Below the pieces are notes generated by a model. The model saw nothing but the letters and a program-made list of their open reading frames with translations. It had not been told where the DNA came from and did no database searches. The translations under genes were made by a program, and so were the position numbers. From Escherichia coli (lineage in GTDB: Bacteria; Pseudomonadota; Gammaproteobacteria; Enterobacterales; Enterobacteriaceae), in NCBI RefSeq assembly GCF_001677475.2, contig NZ_CP015229.1: a stretch of 64,000 nt of DNA, one strand, 5' to 3'. The stretch's first letter is position 1. Each line of letters starts with the position of its first letter. This document shows positions 8,458 to 48,711 of the stretch, one piece after another.

Positions 8458-8631
8458 GACAAATGAAATTTTAGTAAACTCTTTAAAATCAATGGGTAAA
8501 ATAATTAACATCAAAAATAACGCGACTTTTATCACTTTTTAGTAAAGTTGCACTGGACAAAGCGTACCACAATTGGTGTACTGGTAACCGACACAGCATT
8601 TGTGTCTATTTTTCATGTAAAGGTAATTTTG

Positions 8632-8841
8632 ATGTCTAAGATTAAAGGTAACGTTAAGTGGTTTAATGAGTCCAAAGGATTCGGTTTCATTACTCCGGAA
8701 GACGGCAGCAAAGACGTGTTCGTACACTTCTCTGCAATCCAGACTAATGGTTTTAAAACTCTTGCTGAAGGTCAGCGCGTAGAGTTCGAAATCACTAACG
8801 GTGCCAAAGGCCCTTCTGCTGCAAACGTAATCGCTCTGTAA
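8632..8841 (+). CDS. cspE: cold-shock-domain protein CspE
   Basis: 69-aa ORF from ATG 8632: [33 protein letters not shown]... (RNP1/RNP2 motifs). Confidence 0.95.
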
Positions 8842-8860
8842 GATACGTCAGCAAGAATTC

Positions 8861-8890
8861 AAAACCCGCTTAATCAGCGGGTTTTTTTTG
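8861..8890. terminator. Rho-independent terminator between convergent cspE and crcB
   Basis: Hairpin cccgct/agcggg (8865..8881) followed by a T8 run; A-run on the other side. Confidence 0.7.
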
Positions 8891-20398: not shown

Positions 20399-20639
20399 TC
20401 AAATAGATAAAAATGGTCTGTCAGTATACCTGAACCAGAGGCGATTTCGGGACAATTGTCGCCGAATCGGCTTTCGAAAGTGGGCTATCATCCCACCCCG
20501 CGCCGCAGATTGCATCGCCATTTTTGTAAAACAATTTCTACAAAGTCGTGTCTGGCGAAAAAAGTCTGGCTGCGGAGAATATCAGCCTGCCCGGGGCTGT
20601 CAATGGTCGTTGCGGCTTACCCGTAAAAAAACAGAAAAG

Positions 20640-21251
20640 TCATGCATTCTCGACCCCGATGGCACGGCTATTGAGGACGCGTAGCGTCGCGAATTTTTGG
20701 TTGATATCAATGGCGCTCCAACACCCCTGGTCAACGCGAAAATGCCACATAGCTTCGGCAGGCATACCAATTAAACGGGCGATTAACAGACTCAGTACAC
20801 CCTGATGGCTGACGACTAAAATATTCTGATAGTGCTGAAATTCACTAAGCCTTGCGATAAACCGTTCCACTCGTTGTGAAAATGCCTGAAATCCTTCACC
20901 GTTCGTGGGGATAGCATGCTGCCAGTCATTGCACCACGCGCTATAGTTTTCGGCATCTTCTTGCATGAGGTCGCGATGATGTCGCATCTCCCAGTCGCCA
21001 AAAAACATTTCGTTGAGTTCAGGGATGATTTGCACGGGAAGCTGGCGATCACTGAGAACCAGTCGCGCGGTATGCTGTGCCCGTTCCAGTTCACTGCATA
21101 AAACCAGGTCAAAGGAAACATCATCTAGCAGCGTATGCAGATTTTGCGCTTGCTCAATACCGCGCGCGGTCAGGGGAGTGGGCGCATGACCGCTGTACAG
21201 ACCATCGACATTCGCTTGCGTTTCGCCATGACGAATTAACCACAGTCGCAT
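20640..21251 (-). CDS. cobC: adenosylcobalamin/alpha-ribazole phosphatase (histidine phosphatase family)
   Basis: ORF 20640..21254; start at second Met gives 203 aa MRLWLIRHGETQANVDGLYSGH... (RHG motif). Confidence 0.85.
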   Translation of the reverse strand: MRLWLIRHGETQANVDGLYSGHAPTPLTARGIEQAQNLHTLLDDVSFDLVLCSELERAQHTARLVLSDRQLPVQIIPELNEMFFGDWEMRHHRDLMQEDAENYSAWCNDWQHAIPTNGEGFQAFSQRVERFIARLSEFQHYQNILVVSHQGVLSLLIARLIGMPAEAMWHFRVDQGCWSAIDINQKFATLRVLNSRAIGVENA

Positions 21252-21274
21252 CATGCCCTCCGTAACGACAGGTA

Positions 21275-21916
21275 TCAGCGATACAAGCCTTGTTGGTTAA
21301 TGTAAGTCAGTACCGGTTCCGGCAATAAATCCTCACACGATTCACCGTTTTGCAAACGTTCGCGGATGATGGTCGCCGAGATGTTAAACCACGGCGTTTC
21401 AGCCAGATAAATTTTACCGGCAGGCTGAAGGTGAAGATCTTCCGGGTTATGTGTCAAATGATCTTCCAGCCATTGCTGGTATTGCGTTTGCGCCATTTCA
21501 AGTGGGTAACCTGGACGCCGACAGACGATCAAATGTGCATTGTCGAGTATCGTTTCGTATTCGTACCAGGTCGGAAAGGTCAGCAATGAATCCTGACCAA
21601 TAATAAACGCCAGCGGCACGTCCGGTCCTTGTTCCTGCCGCCACTCTTTCAGTGTTTGCGCAGTGTAAGAAGGGGCATTGCGCTTTAGCTCGCGTTCATC
21701 AAGAGTAAATAATGGCTTGTCGGCAATCGCCAGTTCAAGCATGTGTTTACGCTGCACGCTGTTCGCTTCCGGCTGGGGACGATGCGGAGGAACATTATTA
21801 GGAATTATTGTGACCCGCGTCAGACCAATCAAATTCGCCAGCGTTTCCACGGGTTTTAGATGACCATAGTGCACCGGATCAAAGGTGCCGCCAAACAGAG
21901 CCTGTAAAGATTTCAT
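21275..21916 (-). CDS. nadD: nicotinate-nucleotide adenylyltransferase
   Basis: 213-aa [27 protein letters not shown]... Confidence 0.95.
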
Positions 21917-21917
21917 A

Positions 21918-22949
21918 TCAACCGTCGATAAATACGTCCGCCAGGGGTTTATGGCACAACAGAAGAGATAACCCTTCCAGCTCTGCCCACACTGACTGAC
22001 CGTAATCTTGTTTGAGGGTGAGTTCCGTTCGTGTCAGGAGTTGCACGGCCTGACGTAACTGCGGCTGGCTTAAGCGATTTAACGCCTCGCCCATCATGCC
22101 CCGGCGGTTCTGCCATACCCGATGCTTATCAAACAACGCACGCAGTGGCGTATGGGCAGACTGGCGTTTCAGGTTAACCAGTAACAACAGTTCACGTTGT
22201 AATGTGCGCAACAAAATAACCGGCTCGCTGCCTTCCAGACGCAGTTGCTGAAGAATGTGCAATGCGCGCTTGCTTTTGCCCATCAACAAAGCATCGACCC
22301 AATGAAAAGGGGTGAAATGCGCGGCATCATTCACTGCCTGCTCAACGCGCGGTAATGTCAGTTTGCCGTCCGGCCAGAGAAGCGATAAACGCTCCAGCGC
22401 CTGTGCCAGCGCCAGCAGGTTACCTTCATAACAATAGCAGAGCATCTGATTTGCAGCGTCATCCAGTTCTAAGTTGAGCTGTTTTGCACGCGCAGCAACC
22501 CAGCGAGGAAGCTGAGCCTGCTCCGGTGTCTGACAGGTTACCTGCACGCTTCGATTAGCAAGAGCAGTAAACCAGGCAGCATTTTCCTGCGCTTTGCTTA
22601 ATTTATTGCCGCGCACGATCAGCAGCAAATCGTCATGCAGCAGTCCGGTCAGTGTCAGAAGTTGGTCATTGATCGCCGCATTTGGTCCGTTTTCTGGTAA
22701 CAGCAGCAATAGCGTTTGTCGACTGGCGAACAGGCTCATGGCCTGGCATAGCGAAAATATCGCATTCCAGTCGGTGTTGGGATCAATGGAAAAAGTGTGG
22801 TGTTCTGCAAATCCTTGTGCTGCAGCTACCTGACGAACAGCGTCCTGGCTTTCCTGCAACAACAGAGGATCGTTACCAAGCAAAAGATACGCCGCGCGCA
22901 GCCCTTCATTGAGCTGCGCGCGGAGTTGTTCCGGGTACAACCGAATCAT
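21918..22949 (-). CDS. holA: DNA polymerase III delta subunit
   Basis: 343-aa [36 protein letters not shown]...; start overlaps the lptE stop by 1 nt. Confidence 0.95.
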
Positions 22950-23527
22950 CAGTTACCCAGCGTAGTAGAGACGCGTGCAGGCGTTGCTGCAGTATCCGTT
23001 GTTTTCGACGTATCTTCGTCGGAACGGATATCCGCAGCGCGGATGCTTGGCAGCTTACGTATCAGCTGTTCGGCAGCACGGTCGTACATCTCTTGAATGA
23101 TCATGCTTTGCTCATTATCTTTCGCTAACGCCATTTGCGGGTTATCGAAGAACGAACGGAAGACTTTGGCGCTAATCGGGTAGATGTCACGGCCAGGGAT
23201 CAATACTGACGCGCTGACAGTCATCACCATTTGATATTCAGCGGTTTGACCATTACGGAAAACTGAAGCGGTATCCTGGGAGATTGATACAGCACCCAAA
23301 CGCAGGGATGGAACATCCTTACGCGTGGTTTCTTTATCAAGCAACTCAACACCGTTCAGACGCAACTGATTACGCACCGCACGGCTTAACGGCCCGTTCG
23401 GGTCGCCAGAGTCCAGGATCATGACCTTCATAGTGGAAGGAACCTGCGTGGTATCACGCAGATGCCAGCCACACCCGGCGGTGATTAACACCGCCAGAGA
23501 TAACAACAATGTTGCCAGATATCGCAC
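22949..23527 (-). CDS. lptE: LPS-assembly lipoprotein LptE
   Basis: 192-aa [31 protein letters not shown]... (lipobox ITAGC). Confidence 0.95.
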
Positions 23528-23541
23528 GCTTCCTCCCGCGC

Positions 23542-26124
23542 TTAGCCAACGACCAGATTGAGGAGTTTACCCGGTACGTAAATCACTTTACGCACGGTAA
23601 CGCCATCAAGATATTTTGCTACCAGATGTTCCTGGCCAGCACGTTCGCGAACCTGTTCTTCCGTTGCATCTACCGGAACGGTGATTTTGGCACGGACTTT
23701 ACCGTTAACCTGCACCACCACCAGCGTGGAATCTTCCACCATCGCTTTCTCGTCTGCAACCGGCCACGGCGCGTTGTCGATATCGCCTTCGCCTTTCAGT
23801 TCCTGCCACAGCGTGAAGCAGATGTGCGGCGTGAACGGGTTAAGCATACGAACAACGGCCAGCAGGGCTTCCTGCATCAGCGCGCGATCCTGCTCACCAT
23901 CGGTCGGTGCTTTTGCCAGTTTGTTCATCAGCTCCATAATCGCCGCAATTGCAGTGTTAAAGGTCTGACGACGACCGATATCATCGGTCACTTTAGCGAT
24001 AGTTTTATGAACATCACGACGCAGAGCTTTCTGATCTTCAGTCAGTGCGTCAACGTTCAGCGCCGCAACATCACCTTTCGCAGTGTGCTCGTAAACCAGT
24101 TTCCAGACACGTTTCAGGAAGCGGTTAGCCCCTTCAACGCCGGACTCCTGCCATTCGAGAGTCATATCCGCCGGAGAAGCGAACATCATAAACAGACGAA
24201 CGGTGTCCGCGCCGTAACGTTCAACCATCACCTGCGGGTCGATACCGTTGTTCTTCGACTTAGACATTTTGCTCATGCCGGTATACACCAGTTCATGGCC
24301 TGCCGCGTCTTTCGCTTTCACGATACGGCCTTTCTCGTCGCGCTCAACGATAGCATCAACCGGGGAAACCCAGTTACGTTCGCCGTTTTCGCCTACATAG
24401 TAGAAGGCATCTGCCAGCACCATCCCCTGACACAGCAGCTGTTTCGCTGGCTCGTCAGAGTTCACCATGCCTGCATCACGCATCAGTTTGTGGAAGAAGC
24501 GGAAGTAGAGCAGGTGCATGATGGCGTGTTCGATACCACCAATGTAGATATCCACTGGCAGCCAGTAGTTAGCTGCTTTGGAATCCAGCATACCCTCTTT
24601 GTACTCCGGGCAAGTGTAGCGCGCATAGTACCAGGAGGACTCCATAAAGGTGTCGAAAGTATCGGTTTCACGCAGTGCCGGCATACCATTAACGGTGGTT
24701 TTCGCCCACTCAGGATCTGCTTTGATCGGGCTGGTAATACCATCCATTACCACATCTTCCGGCAGGATCACCGGCAACTGGTCGTCCGGAGTAGGCATCA
24801 CAGTGCCGTCCTCCAGCGTCACCATCGGAATCGGTGCGCCCCAGTAACGCTGACGGGAAACACCCCAGTCGCGCAGGCGATAGTTTACTTTACGCTCGCC
24901 AACGCCCATTGCCGTCAATTTGTCGGCAATGGCGTTAAAGGCCGCTTCATGGTCAAGACCGTTGAACTCGCCAGAGTTGAACAGCACGCCTTTTTCAGTC
25001 AGGGCTTGCTGAGAAAGATCTGGCTCAGAGCCGTCAGCTGCCAGGATAACCGGTTTGATATTCAGGCCGTATTTAGAGGCAAACTCGTAGTCGCGCTGGT
25101 CGTGACCCGGAACCGCCATAACTGCGCCCGTGCCGTATTCCATCAATACGAAGTTTGCTGCCCAAACGGGAATTTCTTCGCCCGTTAATGGGTGAACCGC
25201 TTTAAAGCCAGTATCGACGCCTTTTTTCTCCATCGTCGCCATTTCAGCTTCGGCAACTTTGGTGTTACGGCATTCGTCAATAAAGGCCGCCAGTTCAGGA
25301 TTATTTTCCGCCGCTTTCTGCGCCAGCGGATGACCCGCAGCTACCGCCAGGTAGGTACAACCCATAAAGGTGTCCGGGCGGGTAGTGTAAACGGTCAGCG
25401 TGTTGTCATAGTCGTTAACGTTGAAGGTGATCTCCACGCCTTCGGAACGACCGATCCAGTTACGCTGCATGGTTTTAACGGTGTCTGGCCAGTGATCCAG
25501 TTTATCCAGATCGTTGAGCAGCTCGTCAGCGTAAGCGGTGATTTTGATAAACCACTGCGGGATCTCTTTACGCTCAACTTTGGTATCGCAGCGCCAGCAG
25601 CAGCCGTCGATAACTTGTTCGTTCGCCAGTACGGTCTGGTCGTTCGGGCACCAGTTGACCGCAGAAGTCTTCTTATATACCAGGCCTTTTTTATACAGCT
25701 CGGTGAAGAATTTCTGTTCCCAACGGTAGTATTCCGGCGTACAGGTTGCCAGCTCGCGGCTCCAGTCATAACCAAAGCCCAGCATTTTGAGCTGGTTTTT
25801 CATATACGCGATGTTGTCGTACGTCCACGGTGCCGGAGCGGTGTTGTTTTTCACCGCCGCGCCTTCCGCAGGCAGACCAAACGCGTCCCAGCCGATCGGC
25901 TGCAGAACGTTTTTGCCCAGCATGCGCTGGTAACGGGCGATCACGTCACCGATGGTGTAGTTACGTACGTGGCCCATGTGTAGTCGACCAGAAGGATAGG
26001 GAAGCATAGACAGGCAGTAATACTTCTCTTTGCTCTCGTCTTCGGTTACTTCAAATGTGCGCTTCTCATCCCAATGAAGCTGTACTTTGGATTCTATCTC
26101 TTCCGGGCGGTATTGCTCTTGCAT
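23542..26124 (-). CDS. leuS: leucine--tRNA ligase
   Basis: ORF 23542..26148; start at internal Met gives 860 aa [24 protein letters not shown]... with HMGH and KMSKS motifs. Confidence 0.95.
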
Positions 26125-26359
26125 GGCAGCCAGTGGTCCTGTTTTCATTACGGCTACAAAAGTAGCGTTAGAGGTGGTTTTTCAGATCCGCATAGCATAG
26201 CCCAAACGTCCGCGTCAAAACAGCCTTTCGCGCACTCGACGTTGAAATGATGCCCGGATTATTCATACATTAATTTACAGAGTTTGTGGGCGTATTAGCA
26301 AAGCAAGGAACAAAGAACGTCTATTATTATAGTCAGTTAACGACCCGGGAGATGAAACG

Positions 26360-26875: not shown

Positions 26876-26908
26876 GGGCCGAATGAAATTCCCCGGCCCT
26901 TGTTTTTA
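26876..26908 (+). terminator. Rho-independent terminator after ybeL
   Basis: gggccgaatgaaattccccggccc hairpin followed by ttgttttta. Confidence 0.6.
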
Positions 26909-39457: not shown

Positions 39458-39620
39458 AGAAAAAAGAGGGTAGCAGCGTTAACTGCTACCCTCGAAGATT
39501 GTTACCCAGCGTATTGCGGTTTTCAGGCCCGATGGGGAACGACCATCAGGCGTATAGTCTGTCCGTGCTACGTAACAATCGAGAGGGCTGGAATTTCCGC
39601 CCCTGGTTCTTGTAATTAGT
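39458..39620 (-). ncRNA. sroC: SroC-like sRNA in the gltI-gltJ spacer (GcvB sponge in E. coli)
   Basis: 169-bp spacer; minus-strand hairpin gagggtagcag/ctgctaccctc (39466..39493) followed by a U-run ending about 12 nt before the gltJ start; ends set from position in spacer and recalled ~163-nt length. Confidence 0.55.
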
Positions 39621-48007: not shown

Positions 48008-48082
48008 TGGCTGGGGTACGAGGATTCGAACCTCGGAATGCCGGAATCAGAATCCGGTGCCTTACCGCTTGGCGATACCCCA
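48008..48082 (-). tRNA. glnX: tRNA-Gln (anticodon CUG)
   Basis: 75-nt minus-strand sequence UGGGGUAUCGCCAAGCGGUAAGGCACCGGAUUCUGAUUCCGG...CCA; anticodon loop UUCUGAU. Confidence 0.9.
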
Positions 48083-48119
48083 ACTGGGTGCACTTACGAT
48101 GTAAGCGTCTTGAATAAAT

Positions 48120-48194
48120 TGGCTGGGGTACGAGGATTCGAACCTCGGAATGCCGGAATCAGAATCCGGTGCCTTACCGCTTGGCGATACCCCA
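48120..48194 (-). tRNA. glnV: tRNA-Gln (anticodon CUG), tandem copy
   Basis: Identical 75-nt sequence to 48008..48082. Confidence 0.9.
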
Positions 48195-48242
48195 ACAAAT
48201 TGGTTTGTGAATTTGCCGAACTTATTCGACACATTCAGAATT

Positions 48243-48319
48243 TGGTGGCTACGACGGGATTCGAACCTGTGACCCCATCATTATGAGTGATGTGCTCTAA
48301 CCAACTGAGCTACGTAGCC
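48243..48319 (-). tRNA. metU: elongator tRNA-Met (anticodon CAU)
   Basis: 77 nt GGCUACGUAGCUCAGUUGGUUAGAGCACAUCACUCAUAAUGAUGGGGUCACAGGUUCGAAUCCCGUCGUAGCCACCA. Confidence 0.9.
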
Positions 48320-48334
48320 AGATTGTTTCTTCGA

Positions 48335-48409
48335 TGGCTGGGGTACCTGGATTCGAACCAGGGAATGCCGGTATCAAAAACCGGTGCCTTACCGCTTGGC
48401 GATACCCCA
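48335..48409 (-). tRNA. glnW: tRNA-Gln (anticodon UUG)
   Basis: 75 nt; anticodon loop UUUUGAU. Confidence 0.9.
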
Positions 48410-48443
48410 ATAACCGGGCGGTGAACCGCTTACTCGAAGAAGA

Positions 48444-48518
48444 TGGCTGGGGTACCTGGATTCGAACCAGGGAATGCCGGTATCAAAAACCGGTGCCTTA
48501 CCGCTTGGCGATACCCCA
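48444..48518 (-). tRNA. glnU: tRNA-Gln (anticodon UUG), tandem copy
   Basis: Identical 75-nt sequence to 48335..48409. Confidence 0.9.
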
Positions 48519-48541
48519 TCCGTACAACGCTTTCTGGTGAA

Positions 48542-48626
48542 TGGTGCGGGAGGCGAGACTTGAACTCGCACACCTTGCGGCGCCAGAACCTAAATCTGGT
48601 GCGTCTACCAATTTCGCCACTCCCGC
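48542..48626 (-). tRNA. leuW: tRNA-Leu (anticodon UAG)
   Basis: 85 nt GCGGGAGUGGCGAAAUUGGUAGACGCACCAGAUUUAGGUUCUGG... with long variable arm. Confidence 0.9.
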
Positions 48627-48634
48627 AAAAAAGA

Positions 48635-48711
48635 TGGTGGCTACGACGGGATTCGAACCTGTGACCCCATCATTATGAGTGATGTGCTCTAACCAACTGA
48701 GCTACGTAGCC
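48635..48711 (-). tRNA. metT: elongator tRNA-Met (anticodon CAU), second copy
   Basis: Identical 77-nt sequence to 48243..48319. Confidence 0.9.

Follow-up and report, generated by a model that had tools for sequence, protein, structure and literature searches.

The macromolecular synthesis operon rpsU-dnaG-rpoD of Escherichia coli reportedly places an abundant translation gene first and a scarce, poorly translated replication protein behind an internal partial terminator, with promoters inside the replication gene driving the distal gene and with unrelated functional classes being co-transcribed; the leuS-lptE-holA-nadD locus described here resembles it in each of these respects. The two differ in that the terminator of rpsU-dnaG-rpoD lies in an intergenic spacer, whereas here the hairpin is formed by holA codons 9–20, right after a stop/start overlap, and in that the present locus has no known regulatory inputs. 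The overlapping junctions trpE-trpD and trpB-trpA are said to be translationally coupled, and they share with our locus the stop/start overlap and little or no downstream Shine-Dalgarno (SD) sequence; by analogy, the lptE/holA and holA/nadD junctions likely behave as the trp pairs do, with downstream output tied to upstream translation, although the trp pairs are subunits produced in equal amounts, whereas LptE and HolA are functionally unrelated proteins made at 6.4 to 1. The rplL-rpoB attenuator is an intra-operon attenuating terminator that sets differential expression. The hairpin within holA (hairpin 2 below) resembles this attenuator, as well as the ORF-internal 3′ ends of Adams et al. 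2021, in its GC-rich stem, U-containing tail, partial read-through, and lower distal expression; unlike the rplL-rpoB attenuator, it lies within coding sequence, where the encoded protein and the RNA fold each limit what can change, and has a weak U-tract.

The nearest described system is the leuS-lptE-holA-nadD-cobC unit of E. coli K-12, with which the window (the whole 64-kb stretch of E. coli DNA that was analysed) shares orthologues, order, strand, and junction spacing; RegulonDB and EcoCyc hold it as a simple operon entry without subdivision, whereas long-read and Term-seq data from K-12 subdivide it. The RegulonDB operon b0642-b0641-b0640-b0639-b0638 is one unit as cited in Yan et al. 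2018, in agreement with a sequence-only reading of the window, in which leuS, lptE, holA, and nadD are strung together on one strand. The locus, with or without cobC, is thus a known, already catalogued Escherichia operon, and the gene-packing observation by itself matters little, as it restates that operon with typical spacing. Hairpin 2 is in turn a catalogued, uncharacterised internal terminator-like element in a known operon, and its coincidence with a tabulated 3′ end and with strong synonymous-site selection is of modest value. The reading that we favor, and consider probable, is that of a known operon in which two kinds of junction and a transcript-ending hairpin in holA give stepwise outputs. 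The SD contrast combined with hairpin 2 would explain how one promoter yields thousands of LeuS and only tens of the delta subunit, and the locus offers a clean test case for terminators within essential-gene coding sequence.

Genes of the Locus

The following genes of the window were examined, all of which pass their NCBIfam equivalog cut-offs:

23542–26124, minus strand: leuS (leucine--tRNA ligase), 860 aa; TIGR00396, 1317.8 bits
22949–23527, minus strand: lptE (LPS assembly lipoprotein), GTG start, 192 aa; NF008062, 312.7 bits
21918–22949, minus strand: holA; TIGR01128, 233.1 bits
21275–21916, minus strand: nadD (nicotinate-nucleotide adenylyltransferase), 213 aa; NF000839, 354.1 bits
20640–21254, minus strand: cobC (alpha-ribazole phosphatase), final gene of the RegulonDB operon; NF011580, 393.7 bits

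The family matches and the strand reading bear out the gene identities and the shared minus strand that had been proposed from the sequence. For leuS, the K-12-equivalent ATG at 26124 was taken as the start, the mechanical ORF reaching an in-frame ATG at 26148. Of 5426 complete E. coli genomes, 5424 carry the locus; the DNA of the window is here ~96% identical to that of K-12, and its lptE allele encodes a 192-aa protein 93% identical to the K-12 allele.

Junction Geometry and Its Conservation

The junctions were read straight off the minus strand and then compared with the ORF list:

23528–23541, minus strand: leuS-lptE spacer gcgcGGGAGGaagc, 14 nt, SD core GGAGG at 23536–23532
22947–22951, minus strand: TGATG, overlap of the lptE stop and the holA start, one shared base (22949)
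21914–21920, minus strand: TGAtATG, holA stop, one base, and nadD start, by direct reading of the strand

The leuS gene ends with TAA at 23544–23542, followed by the spacer gcgcGGGAGGaagc at 23541–23528 and the lptE GTG at 23527; the lptE TGA (22951–22949) and the holA ATG (22949–22947) have base 22949 in common (cTGATGa), and the holA TGA (21920–21918) is separated by a single t (21917) from the nadD ATG at 21916. The spacings reported earlier (14 nt, a 1-nt TGATG overlap, and 1 nt) are all correct on both the strand reading and the ORF list, and the E. coli K-12 RefSeq annotation has the same geometry. A further junction, absent from that earlier list, runs from the nadD TGA over 20–23 nt containing GGAGGG to the cobC ATG.

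Comparison with 80 Enterobacteriaceae species shows that this geometry did not arise by chance in one genome: leuS and lptE are 14 nt apart in 79 of 79 loci, the spacer motif (A/G)GGAGGAA occurs in 79 of 79 species, and the lptE GTG start is kept in every species compared; the lptE/holA overlap measures 1 nt in 73 loci and 4 nt in 8, and holA and nadD are separated by 1 nt in 71 loci and overlap by 8 nt in 11. Tight junctions of this sort are ordinary for bacterial operons: among the same-strand neighbor pairs in the surrounding 50 kb of the K-12 annotation, 16 of 36 have a gap of ≤14 nt and 9 of 36 a gap of ≤1 nt. This commonness is one argument for regarding the spacing as a neutral outcome of genome compaction, with every gene initiating independently, and another is provided by reduced-genome (endosymbiont) relatives, which retain the genes with the lptE-holA gap opened to 32–120 nt (distant taxa being sampled through 50%-cluster representatives). 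We nevertheless regard neutral compaction as an unlikely explanation, given that 80 of 80 species keep this geometry or an equivalent one amid freely varying synonymous sites nearby, that holA and nadD lack an SD altogether, and that a hairpin encloses the holA start; with the SD missing at holA and nadD and with that hairpin in place, independent initiation would therefore be poor.

Initiation Signals and Probable Translational Coupling

The lptE SD, GGAGG, forms a duplex of −10.3 kcal/mol with the 3′ end of 16S rRNA and is invariant across species, and that of cobC reaches −10.0 kcal/mol; no SD pairing was found at holA (−3.7 kcal/mol) or nadD (−2.8 kcal/mol), the background median being −2.6. 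Genes can be closely spaced without being coupled, and SD strength separates the lptE junction from those of holA and nadD. Because an invariant, strong SD serves lptE itself, the 14-nt gap behind leuS does not imply coupling, and because holA and nadD are without one, only lptE/holA and holA/nadD look like re-initiation coupling. Judged by these signals, lptE can initiate independently, and holA and nadD probably cannot. The chain of tight coupling that had been drawn through all four genes is accordingly retained as likely for its two downstream links and given up for leuS/lptE.

The features expected of a coupled pair are distributed in the same manner. The stop overlaps or closely adjoins the start at lptE/holA and holA/nadD, the 14 nt of leuS/lptE being looser, and the downstream SD is missing or the start masked for holA and nadD, not for lptE. 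A shared transcript is documented by SMRT-Cappable-seq in K-12, in which leuS-lptE and leuS-lptE-holA transcripts occur; co-transcription of holA with nadD rests on the RegulonDB operon entry, as no SMRT read class listed spans both. A full-text literature search turned up nothing of relevance to operon organisation or translational coupling in this gene set.

A hairpin lies over the lptE stop and the holA start:

22931–22960, minus strand: hairpin 1, −14.8 kcal/mol, z = −3.2

Its 5′ arm is made of the final lptE codons and its 3′ arm of holA +6..+19, with UGAUG placed in the top of the stem and the loop, and it also appears in the fold of a 141-nt stretch. Across the 80 species, the pairing holds in 77.8% of cells, covariation is seen at three pairs, and G-U and compensatory changes maintain the outer pairs; nothing comparable folds locally at the holA/nadD junction (z = −0.6). 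The stop/start contact, the missing SD, and hairpin 1 are consistent with re-initiation coupling at lptE/holA and holA/nadD.

Evenness of output along the four genes can be judged from ribosome-profiling synthesis rates, which are 2074 for LeuS, 522 for LptE, 82 for HolA, 100 for NadD, and 24 for CobC (values of Li et al. 2014 as tabulated in Dataset EV6 of Mori et al. 2021). Synthesis falls 4-fold from LeuS to LptE and a further 6.4-fold from LptE to HolA, or 25-fold from LeuS to HolA, and these steps speak against even coupling along the chain.

Hairpin 2 within holA

The second structured element lies entirely within the beginning of holA:

22889–22926, minus strand: hairpin 2, a 13-bp core plus two outer pairs, flagged as terminator-like in a consensus scan
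22879–22891, minus strand: tail of hairpin 2, CGUAUCUUUUGCU, in which 22886/22885 correspond by homology to the K-12 RNA 3′ end/transcription termination site (TTS) 671542/671541

The core, CCGCGCGCAGCUC-AAUGAA-GGGCUGCGCGCGG, spans window positions 22923–22892 (holA +27..+58, codons 9–20), and 11 of the 13 bp of its stem are GC pairs (−30.7 kcal/mol, z = −5.15), which is the stable GC-rich stem-loop expected of an intrinsic terminator. The tail is a weak, non-canonical U-tract: U accounts for 4 of the first 8 nt of CGUAUCUUUUGC, and a U4 run begins 7 nt past the stem, a tail that the consensus scan accepted; in most other species 3–4 U fall within the first 8 nt. For comparison, intrinsic terminators are expected to have ~7–9 nt of U-rich sequence immediately behind the stem.

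Hairpin 2 is kept in 80 of 80 Enterobacteriaceae species, at −24.5 to −31.3 kcal/mol, with pairing in 97.5% of cells and compensatory changes at three pairs; most one-sided changes that keep a pair do so as G-U on the sense strand, and changes in the two arms are correlated, whereas those in the loop are unconstrained. Synonymous entropy in holA codons 7–21 is 0.30 versus a gene mean of 1.28, a value as low being reached in 0 of 100,000 permutations, and the GGG and CUC codons of the stem, which are non-preferred in E. coli, are nearly fixed across species. This pattern points to strong purifying selection on hairpin 2 at synonymous sites throughout the 80 species.

Several other origins of the element were considered and rejected. 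General codon bias is at odds with the high codon entropy of holA elsewhere; a known RNA family finds no counterpart among the Rfam 15 covariance models, which gave no match in 21800–23700 at the gathering threshold and none at E ≤ 1; and a dispersed repeat or repeated extragenic palindrome is incompatible with a single copy in the 64-kb window at 3 mismatches, situated within coding sequence. Beyond the Enterobacteriaceae set, no hairpin was seen at this place in AT-rich endosymbiont relatives, and, given these reduced genomes, neither the tight lptE-holA junction nor the hairpin is obligatory. Arsenophonus, whose HolA is 60% identical, has a hairpin of different sequence at the homologous place, followed by U5; it is no better than shuffles (z = −1.14) and was not counted as independent support.

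Transcript Ends and Starts in K-12

All transcript data considered here come from K-12, and we infer that the strain of the window, of the ~96%-identical lineage, behaves in the same way. In Term-seq, ~42,600 reads mark a 3′ end at 671542(−), which lies 63 nt into holA and has a Rho score of 1.35 (not significant), and an intrinsic terminator score of 4.10, which is only just past the threshold of 3.0 (Adams et al. 2021). SMRT-Cappable-seq places a TTS at 671541 for transcripts from transcription start site (TSS) 674845, with leuS and lptE fully covered; 147 reads stop there, 179 stop ≤50 bp downstream, and 26 pass, a read-through fraction that may be underestimated for long cDNAs (Yan et al. 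2018). TTS 671541 is absent from those M9 reverse-strand sites of Yan et al. 2018 that were examined, and both studies give the 3′ end in their supplementary tables only, with neither text discussing it. Transferred to the structure described above, the mapped ends lie 63–64 nt into holA and 6–7 nt past the stem of hairpin 2, and the published K-12 data thus supply a 3′ end just past a stem together with Rho independence, as expected of an intrinsic terminator.

Transcript starts were placed in the window by the same comparison:

26187 and 26264, minus strand: leuS promoter TSS equivalents (K-12 674845 and 674922, respectively; Yan et al. 2018)
24313, minus strand: equivalent, mapped by homology, of TSS 672972 within leuS, at which lptE transcripts start (Yan et al. 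2018)
22246, minus strand: equivalent, mapped by homology, of TSS 670902 within holA, ~330 nt upstream of nadD

Yan et al. 2018 report 672972 and 670902 as internal TSSs, alongside read-through leuS-lptE-holA variants, and upstream of 24313 the window sequence reads TTGAGC-16-TATCGT. A consensus promoter scan returned 6 sites versus 6.2 expected from shuffles and missed the published internal TSSs. The sequence-only reading had itself named mapped internal terminators or promoters as evidence that would tell against it, and K-12 has both, namely the 3′ end/TTS at 671541/671542 and the TSSs 672972 and 670902.

These data bear most directly on the simple view of one polycistronic four-gene mRNA, along which ribosomes pass from gene to gene with co-ordinated output. 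Its merits are the contiguous, conserved junctions, the single operon in RegulonDB, and the near equality of HolA (82) and NadD (100), yet it is already contradicted by a TTS 63–64 nt into holA and by the internal TSSs, and it accommodates neither the 25-fold difference in output from LeuS to HolA nor the strong SD that lptE has of its own, so that we give it little credence.

A more serious competitor, though in our judgment still rather less likely than not to be the explanation, holds that hairpin 2 blocks 3′-to-5′ exonucleases or marks the end of a decay intermediate, stabilizing the leuS-lptE message and maybe throttling HolA translation; the 3′ end could then be a processing product, left where hairpin 2 stops an exonuclease that trims the message. 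The position of the end, just 6–7 nt past the stem and ahead of the U run, suits such a view, as do the 179 SMRT reads ending scattered over ≤50 bp downstream and the weak U-tract of most species. DirectRNA-seq coverage in 800-nt windows around the 3′ end is also nearly equal on either side (152 upstream, 135 downstream; Adams et al. 2021), so that the drop in steady-state RNA may be small, and Adams et al. ascribe most 3′ ends that are neither Rho-dependent nor intrinsic to processing. Set against this, the intrinsic score of 4.1 exceeds the threshold set by the authors, termination at the site does not depend on Rho, and 147 SMRT reads whose capped, primary 5′ ends derive from the leuS TSS stop at a single position. 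A 3′ end lying 6–7 nt past a strong GC stem is, moreover, within the range of intrinsic termination. On balance, we infer that the 671541/671542 end arises from termination and not from trimming.

It may also be asked whether the 13-bp inverted repeat functions at the DNA level, as the site of a dimeric protein, possibly in connection with the GATC nearby and with the Dam-dependent heterogeneity of holA reported in Salmonella. The repeat is a near-perfect palindrome matching both strands, a GATC is present at holA +79..+82 in 59 of 80 species, a Salmonella study reports a hemimethylated GATC and bistable expression of holA that Dam represses, and a Citrobacter G-to-A change at column 48 mispairs on the sense RNA and would pair on the antisense; no position in the window could be matched to the Salmonella report. 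Sense-strand RNA 3′ ends, however, map exactly behind hairpin 2, most one-sided changes keep pairing as G-U on the sense RNA only, the loop is free to vary while the arms co-vary, and no binding protein is known, all of which makes a DNA site very improbable.

Proposed Basis of the Stepwise Outputs

In the reading that we favor, a known operon with two kinds of junction and a transcript-ending hairpin, the strong SD and GTG start allow lptE its own initiation, help from ribosomes leaving leuS being optional. A ribosome terminating on lptE would re-initiate at holA, and likewise from holA to nadD; hairpin 1 around UGAUG would necessarily be melted by the ribosome completing lptE, and holA initiation would therefore depend on lptE translation. 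The 13-bp GC hairpin encoded by holA codons 9–20, followed by CGUAUCUUUU, would act as a transcript-level valve, at which most K-12 transcripts arriving from the leuS promoter end 6–7 nt past the stem; for lptE, hairpin 2 would thus serve as a 3′-UTR terminator that happens to fall within the next gene. Poor re-initiation together with this 3′-end-forming hairpin would produce the descent from LeuS (2074) over LptE (522) to HolA (82), with NadD at 100 and CobC at 24.

A bolder extension, which we regard as improbable, is that holA codons 1–21 constitute a conserved, translation-sensitive attenuator of leuS-lptE transcripts, with hairpin 2 ending transcripts unless a re-initiating ribosome trails RNA polymerase closely and prevents folding. 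Were this true, the rate at which the clamp-loader delta subunit and NadD are made would read out ribosome-polymerase coupling, i.e., translation capacity, linking replication and NAD supply to the condition of the translation machinery.

Returning to the favored reading of two junction kinds and a transcript-ending hairpin, holA, nadD, and cobC would be made from the read-through fraction, with nadD being expressed also from the promoter within holA. The operon variants described from TSS 670902 are nadD and nadD-cobC-rsfS-rlmH (Yan et al. 2018), and nadD-only transcripts from this internal start, which count against the proposal, would need uncoupled translation even though nadD is without an SD. 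The −10 element at this TSS reads CATATT in K-12 and CACATT in the window.

Gene Organization and Junction Conservation

The genes considered here lie on the minus strand of the window; the products of all of them pass NCBIfam equivalog cut-offs, and rsfS, rlmH, mrdA, and mrdB are next beyond cobC after a 259-nt gap.

23542-26124, minus strand: leuS
22949-23527, minus strand: lptE (GTG start)
21918-22949, minus strand: holA
21275-21916, minus strand: nadD
20640-21254, minus strand: cobC

In the sequence as read directly, 14 nt (gcgcGGGAGGaagc) lie between the TAA of leuS and the GTG of lptE, the TGA of lptE and the ATG of holA have one base in common (cTGATGa), and one base separates the TGA of holA from the ATG of nadD; the 14-nt, 1-nt-overlap, and 1-nt spacings of the sequence-only reading are thus each confirmed, and the K-12 RefSeq annotation has identical geometry. 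When the junctions were recomputed at loci from 80 Enterobacteriaceae species (HolA identity 82-98%), the leuS-lptE spacing was 14 nt in 79 of 79 loci, every one with (A/G)GGAGGAA and a GTG start, while the lptE/holA overlap was 1 nt in 73 loci and 4 nt in 8, and holA and nadD were separated by 1 nt (71 loci) or overlapped by 8 nt (11 loci). The tight geometry is therefore maintained among these species. Unlike these first three junctions, the last one is evolutionarily labile, since the nadD-cobC spacer, 20-23 nt in the window (21255-21274), varies across species and, in many genera, is interrupted by an insertion of ~1.13-1.17 kb, as was the case for 37 of the 56 loci in which cobC was found (loci L005-L081; seen in the Citrobacter loci inspected). 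Such tight spacing is nevertheless ordinary: in the 50 kb that surround the locus in the K-12 annotation, the gap is at most 1 nt in 9 of 36 same-strand neighbor pairs and at most 14 nt in 16 of 36, and gltJKL alone has two successive 1-nt overlaps.

Of 5426 complete E. coli genomes, 5424 contain a match to the 5.6-kb stretch 20600-26200; identity lies between 95.8% and 96.7% in all of them. LeuS, HolA, NadD, and CobC are 99-100% identical to the K-12 proteins; LptE is 93% identical and has 192 rather than 193 aa, its closest counterpart among three Escherichia loci compared being that of Escherichia sp. E1V33 (L004; 96%). On the basis of the LptE divergence and the ceiling on DNA identity, a divergent Escherichia lineage seems to be the source of the window.

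Two Types of Junction and Graded Protein Output

Shine-Dalgarno (SD) strength was estimated as the energy of the duplex that the 16S rRNA 3' end forms with the 20 nt preceding each start, with 20-mers of this locus as background (median -2.6 kcal/mol). The values are -10.3 kcal/mol for lptE (invariant over 80 species) and -10.0 for cobC, versus -3.7 for holA and -2.8 for nadD; therefore, lptE and cobC have their own strong SD within 14-23-nt spacers, whereas holA and nadD, both of which adjoin the upstream stop codon, have none. These sequence features fit re-initiation coupling at lptE/holA and holA/nadD together with independent initiation at lptE, so that the proposal of coupling through all four genes may hold at the two SD-less junctions but is not supported at lptE. 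A first hairpin (22960-22931, minus strand; -14.8 kcal/mol; z = -3.2; as stable a fold in 2 of 200 shuffles) pairs the final lptE codons with holA +6 to +19 and presents UGAUG at its top; G-U and compensatory changes preserve its outer pairs across species, and its two innermost pairs are not conserved. Folding of the holA/nadD junction gave no structure (z = -0.6).

Protein output in K-12 (MOPS glucose) was obtained from the ribosome-profiling synthesis rates of Li et al. 2014, taken from Dataset EV6 of Mori et al. 2021 (molecular weight x copy number) and divided by molecular weight. The resulting rates of 2074 for LeuS, 522 for LptE, 82 for HolA, 100 for NadD, and 24 for CobC correspond to a 4-fold and then a 6.4-fold fall, a 1.2-fold rise, and a 4.2-fold fall. 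The similar output of HolA and NadD is consistent with coupling at their 1-nt junction, and the large fall from lptE to holA fits inefficient re-initiation, transcript-level loss at a second hairpin, or both.

A Conserved Hairpin at a Mapped 3' End within holA

This second hairpin, found by a terminator scan, has a 13-bp stem with 11 GC pairs (22923-22892, minus strand; holA +27 to +58, codons 9-20), directly followed by CGUAUCUUUUGCUU, and folds at -30.7 kcal/mol (z = -5.15). It is located 26 nt beyond the lptE stop, a distance that, from ribosome footprints, lies out of reach of a ribosome halted there. The inverted repeat is single-copy in the 64-kb window, and a search of Rfam down to E <= 1 gave no match to it. 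The hairpin is present in 80 of 80 species (-24.5 to -31.3 kcal/mol), with loop and flanking synonymous sites varying freely, and the alignment of these species has standard pairs in 97.5% of helix cells. Three pairs show compensatory double changes (CG to GC, CG to UA, and GC to AU), one-sided pair-keeping changes are mostly G-U on the sense strand, and an internal A-C mismatch occurs in one clade, Citrobacter. Codons 7-21 form the lowest stretch of synonymous entropy in holA (0.30 vs a gene mean of 1.28), and none of 100,000 permutations gave a window as low. Within the stem, GGG (Gly16) and CUC (Leu9, Leu13), which are non-preferred E. coli codons, are nearly fixed. Together, the comparative data provide evidence for selection on this hairpin in the family Enterobacteriaceae. 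Codon bias was rejected as the cause of the low entropy, as holA codons elsewhere vary widely and the near-fixed stem codons are non-preferred ones.

The published K-12 transcript maps place the following positions in the window by homology:

22886/22885, minus strand: equivalent of the K-12 3' end
24313, minus strand: equivalent of the TSS inside leuS
22246, minus strand: equivalent of the TSS inside holA
26187/26264, minus strand: equivalents of the leuS promoter TSSs

The 3' end lies 6-7 nt past the hairpin stem, ahead of a U4 run. Term-seq places it at 671542(-), classed as internal to holA and 63 nt from the start codon, with ~42,600 reads (LB, OD 0.4); a further entry in the same table gives 29,860 (Adams et al. 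2021, PMC7815308, Supplementary files 1 and 3). The text of that paper does not discuss the site. In long-read data, transcripts that start at TSS 674845 (930 reads) and fully cover b0642|b0641 have a "novelTTS" at 671541: 147 reads end there, 179 in the 50 bp beyond, and 26 read through (Yan et al. 2018, PMC6131387, Supplementary Data 1). The position is absent from the M9 listing of reverse-strand TTSs examined from that study. Against the RegulonDB operon b0642-b0638, the operon-variant table of Yan et al. contains a leuS-lptE unit and a read-through leuS-lptE-holA unit, an lptE unit from TSS 672972 inside leuS, and a nadD unit and a nadD-cobC-rsfS-rlmH unit from TSS 670902 inside holA.

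A known operon with graded expression is, in our judgment, the likely reading and the best supported. The leuS promoter would yield a leuS-lptE message, the hairpin within holA would form its 3' end, and scarce delta, NadD, and CobC would arise from read-through, SD-less re-initiation, and an internal promoter. The simple four-gene coupling chain of the sequence-only reading is very improbable, as an internal 3' end and internal TSSs are mapped in K-12, and internal terminators or promoters are what it had itself named as evidence to the contrary. The chief doubt concerns the origin of the 3' end: intrinsic termination, or exonuclease trimming and stalling at the hairpin. Trimming, which we consider unlikely, would agree with the weakness of the U-tract, where nearly all species have 3-4 U among the first 8 nt, the near-equal DirectRNA-seq coverage (152 upstream, 135 downstream; PMC7815308), and the scatter of ends downstream, but termination is favored by the intrinsic terminator score of 4.10 (>=3.0 predicts intrinsic termination), Rho independence (nonsignificant Rho score of 1.35; PMC7815308), and the accumulation of long reads from primary transcripts at a single position. 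That the graded operon also has a translation-sensitive attenuator embedded in holA is improbable. The operon is already catalogued, its 3' end is in two public tables, and nothing at the locus falls outside known kinds; the present analysis adds a division of the junctions into two types and evidence of family-wide selection on the hairpin.

Distant Relatives and Known Analogues

Eight contexts of more distant HolA relatives (36-60% identical) were read, seven of which have the order leuS, small ORF, holA, the small ORF matching the LptE family in six (one weakly) and no Pfam family in one; on the eighth, a short contig, the gene upstream could not be assigned. Arsenophonus keeps tight junctions (4-nt and 17-nt overlaps); a hairpin of different sequence at the equivalent place there folds no better than shuffles (z = -1.14). 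In the reduced-genome lineages (Candidatus Profftia, Sodalis sp. CWE, and the small-genome or AT-rich L087, L090, and L091), lptE-holA gaps are 32-120 nt and the holA hairpin was not found.

The closest analogue is the rpsU-dnaG-rpoD operon, in which an abundant translation gene is combined with an internal terminator, a replication protein that is scarce and poorly translated, and internal promoters that serve the distal gene. In their stop/start overlaps, the junctions of this locus are similar to trpE-trpD and trpB-trpA, although, unlike in the trp pairs, outputs are unequal here.

Additional Observations

A GATC at 22868-22871 (minus strand; holA +79 to +82), ~20 nt past the holA hairpin, is present in 59 of 80 species. 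A Salmonella study (PMC7708049) counts holA among the loci with a hemimethylated GATC and Dam-repressed ON/OFF expression; no correspondence between its site and the GATC at 22868-22871 was established. The lowest synonymous variation in all four genes is at leuS codons 1-12 (26089-26124, minus strand; 9-codon entropy 0.05-0.06 vs a leuS mean of 0.84 in 74 Enterobacteriaceae species), which points to constraint on a 5' element that would be a translation-initiation structure or a regulatory site. A second unusually low stretch (0.21-0.36), at leuS codons ~532-548 (~24481-24531, minus strand), lies apart from the equivalent of the internal TSS (24313). Eight codons 5' of the annotated leuS start, an in-frame ATG (26146-26148, minus strand), where K-12 has TTG, makes the mechanical ORF 868 rather than 860 aa. 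At the convergent ends of ybeL/ybeQ, a GC hairpin (26876-26899, both strands), terminator-like in score on the minus strand, is probably the ybeL terminator and possibly bidirectional; plus-strand 3' ends are mapped at its K-12 equivalent (675562, 675677; Adams et al. 2021, PMC7815308). Elsewhere in the window, Rfam gathering-threshold matches comprise the sroC sRNA (39458-39620, minus strand), a cspA-type thermoregulator 5' UTR (8531-8889, plus strand) preceding the gene that the K-12 annotation calls cspE, and seven clustered tRNA genes (48011-48711, minus strand).
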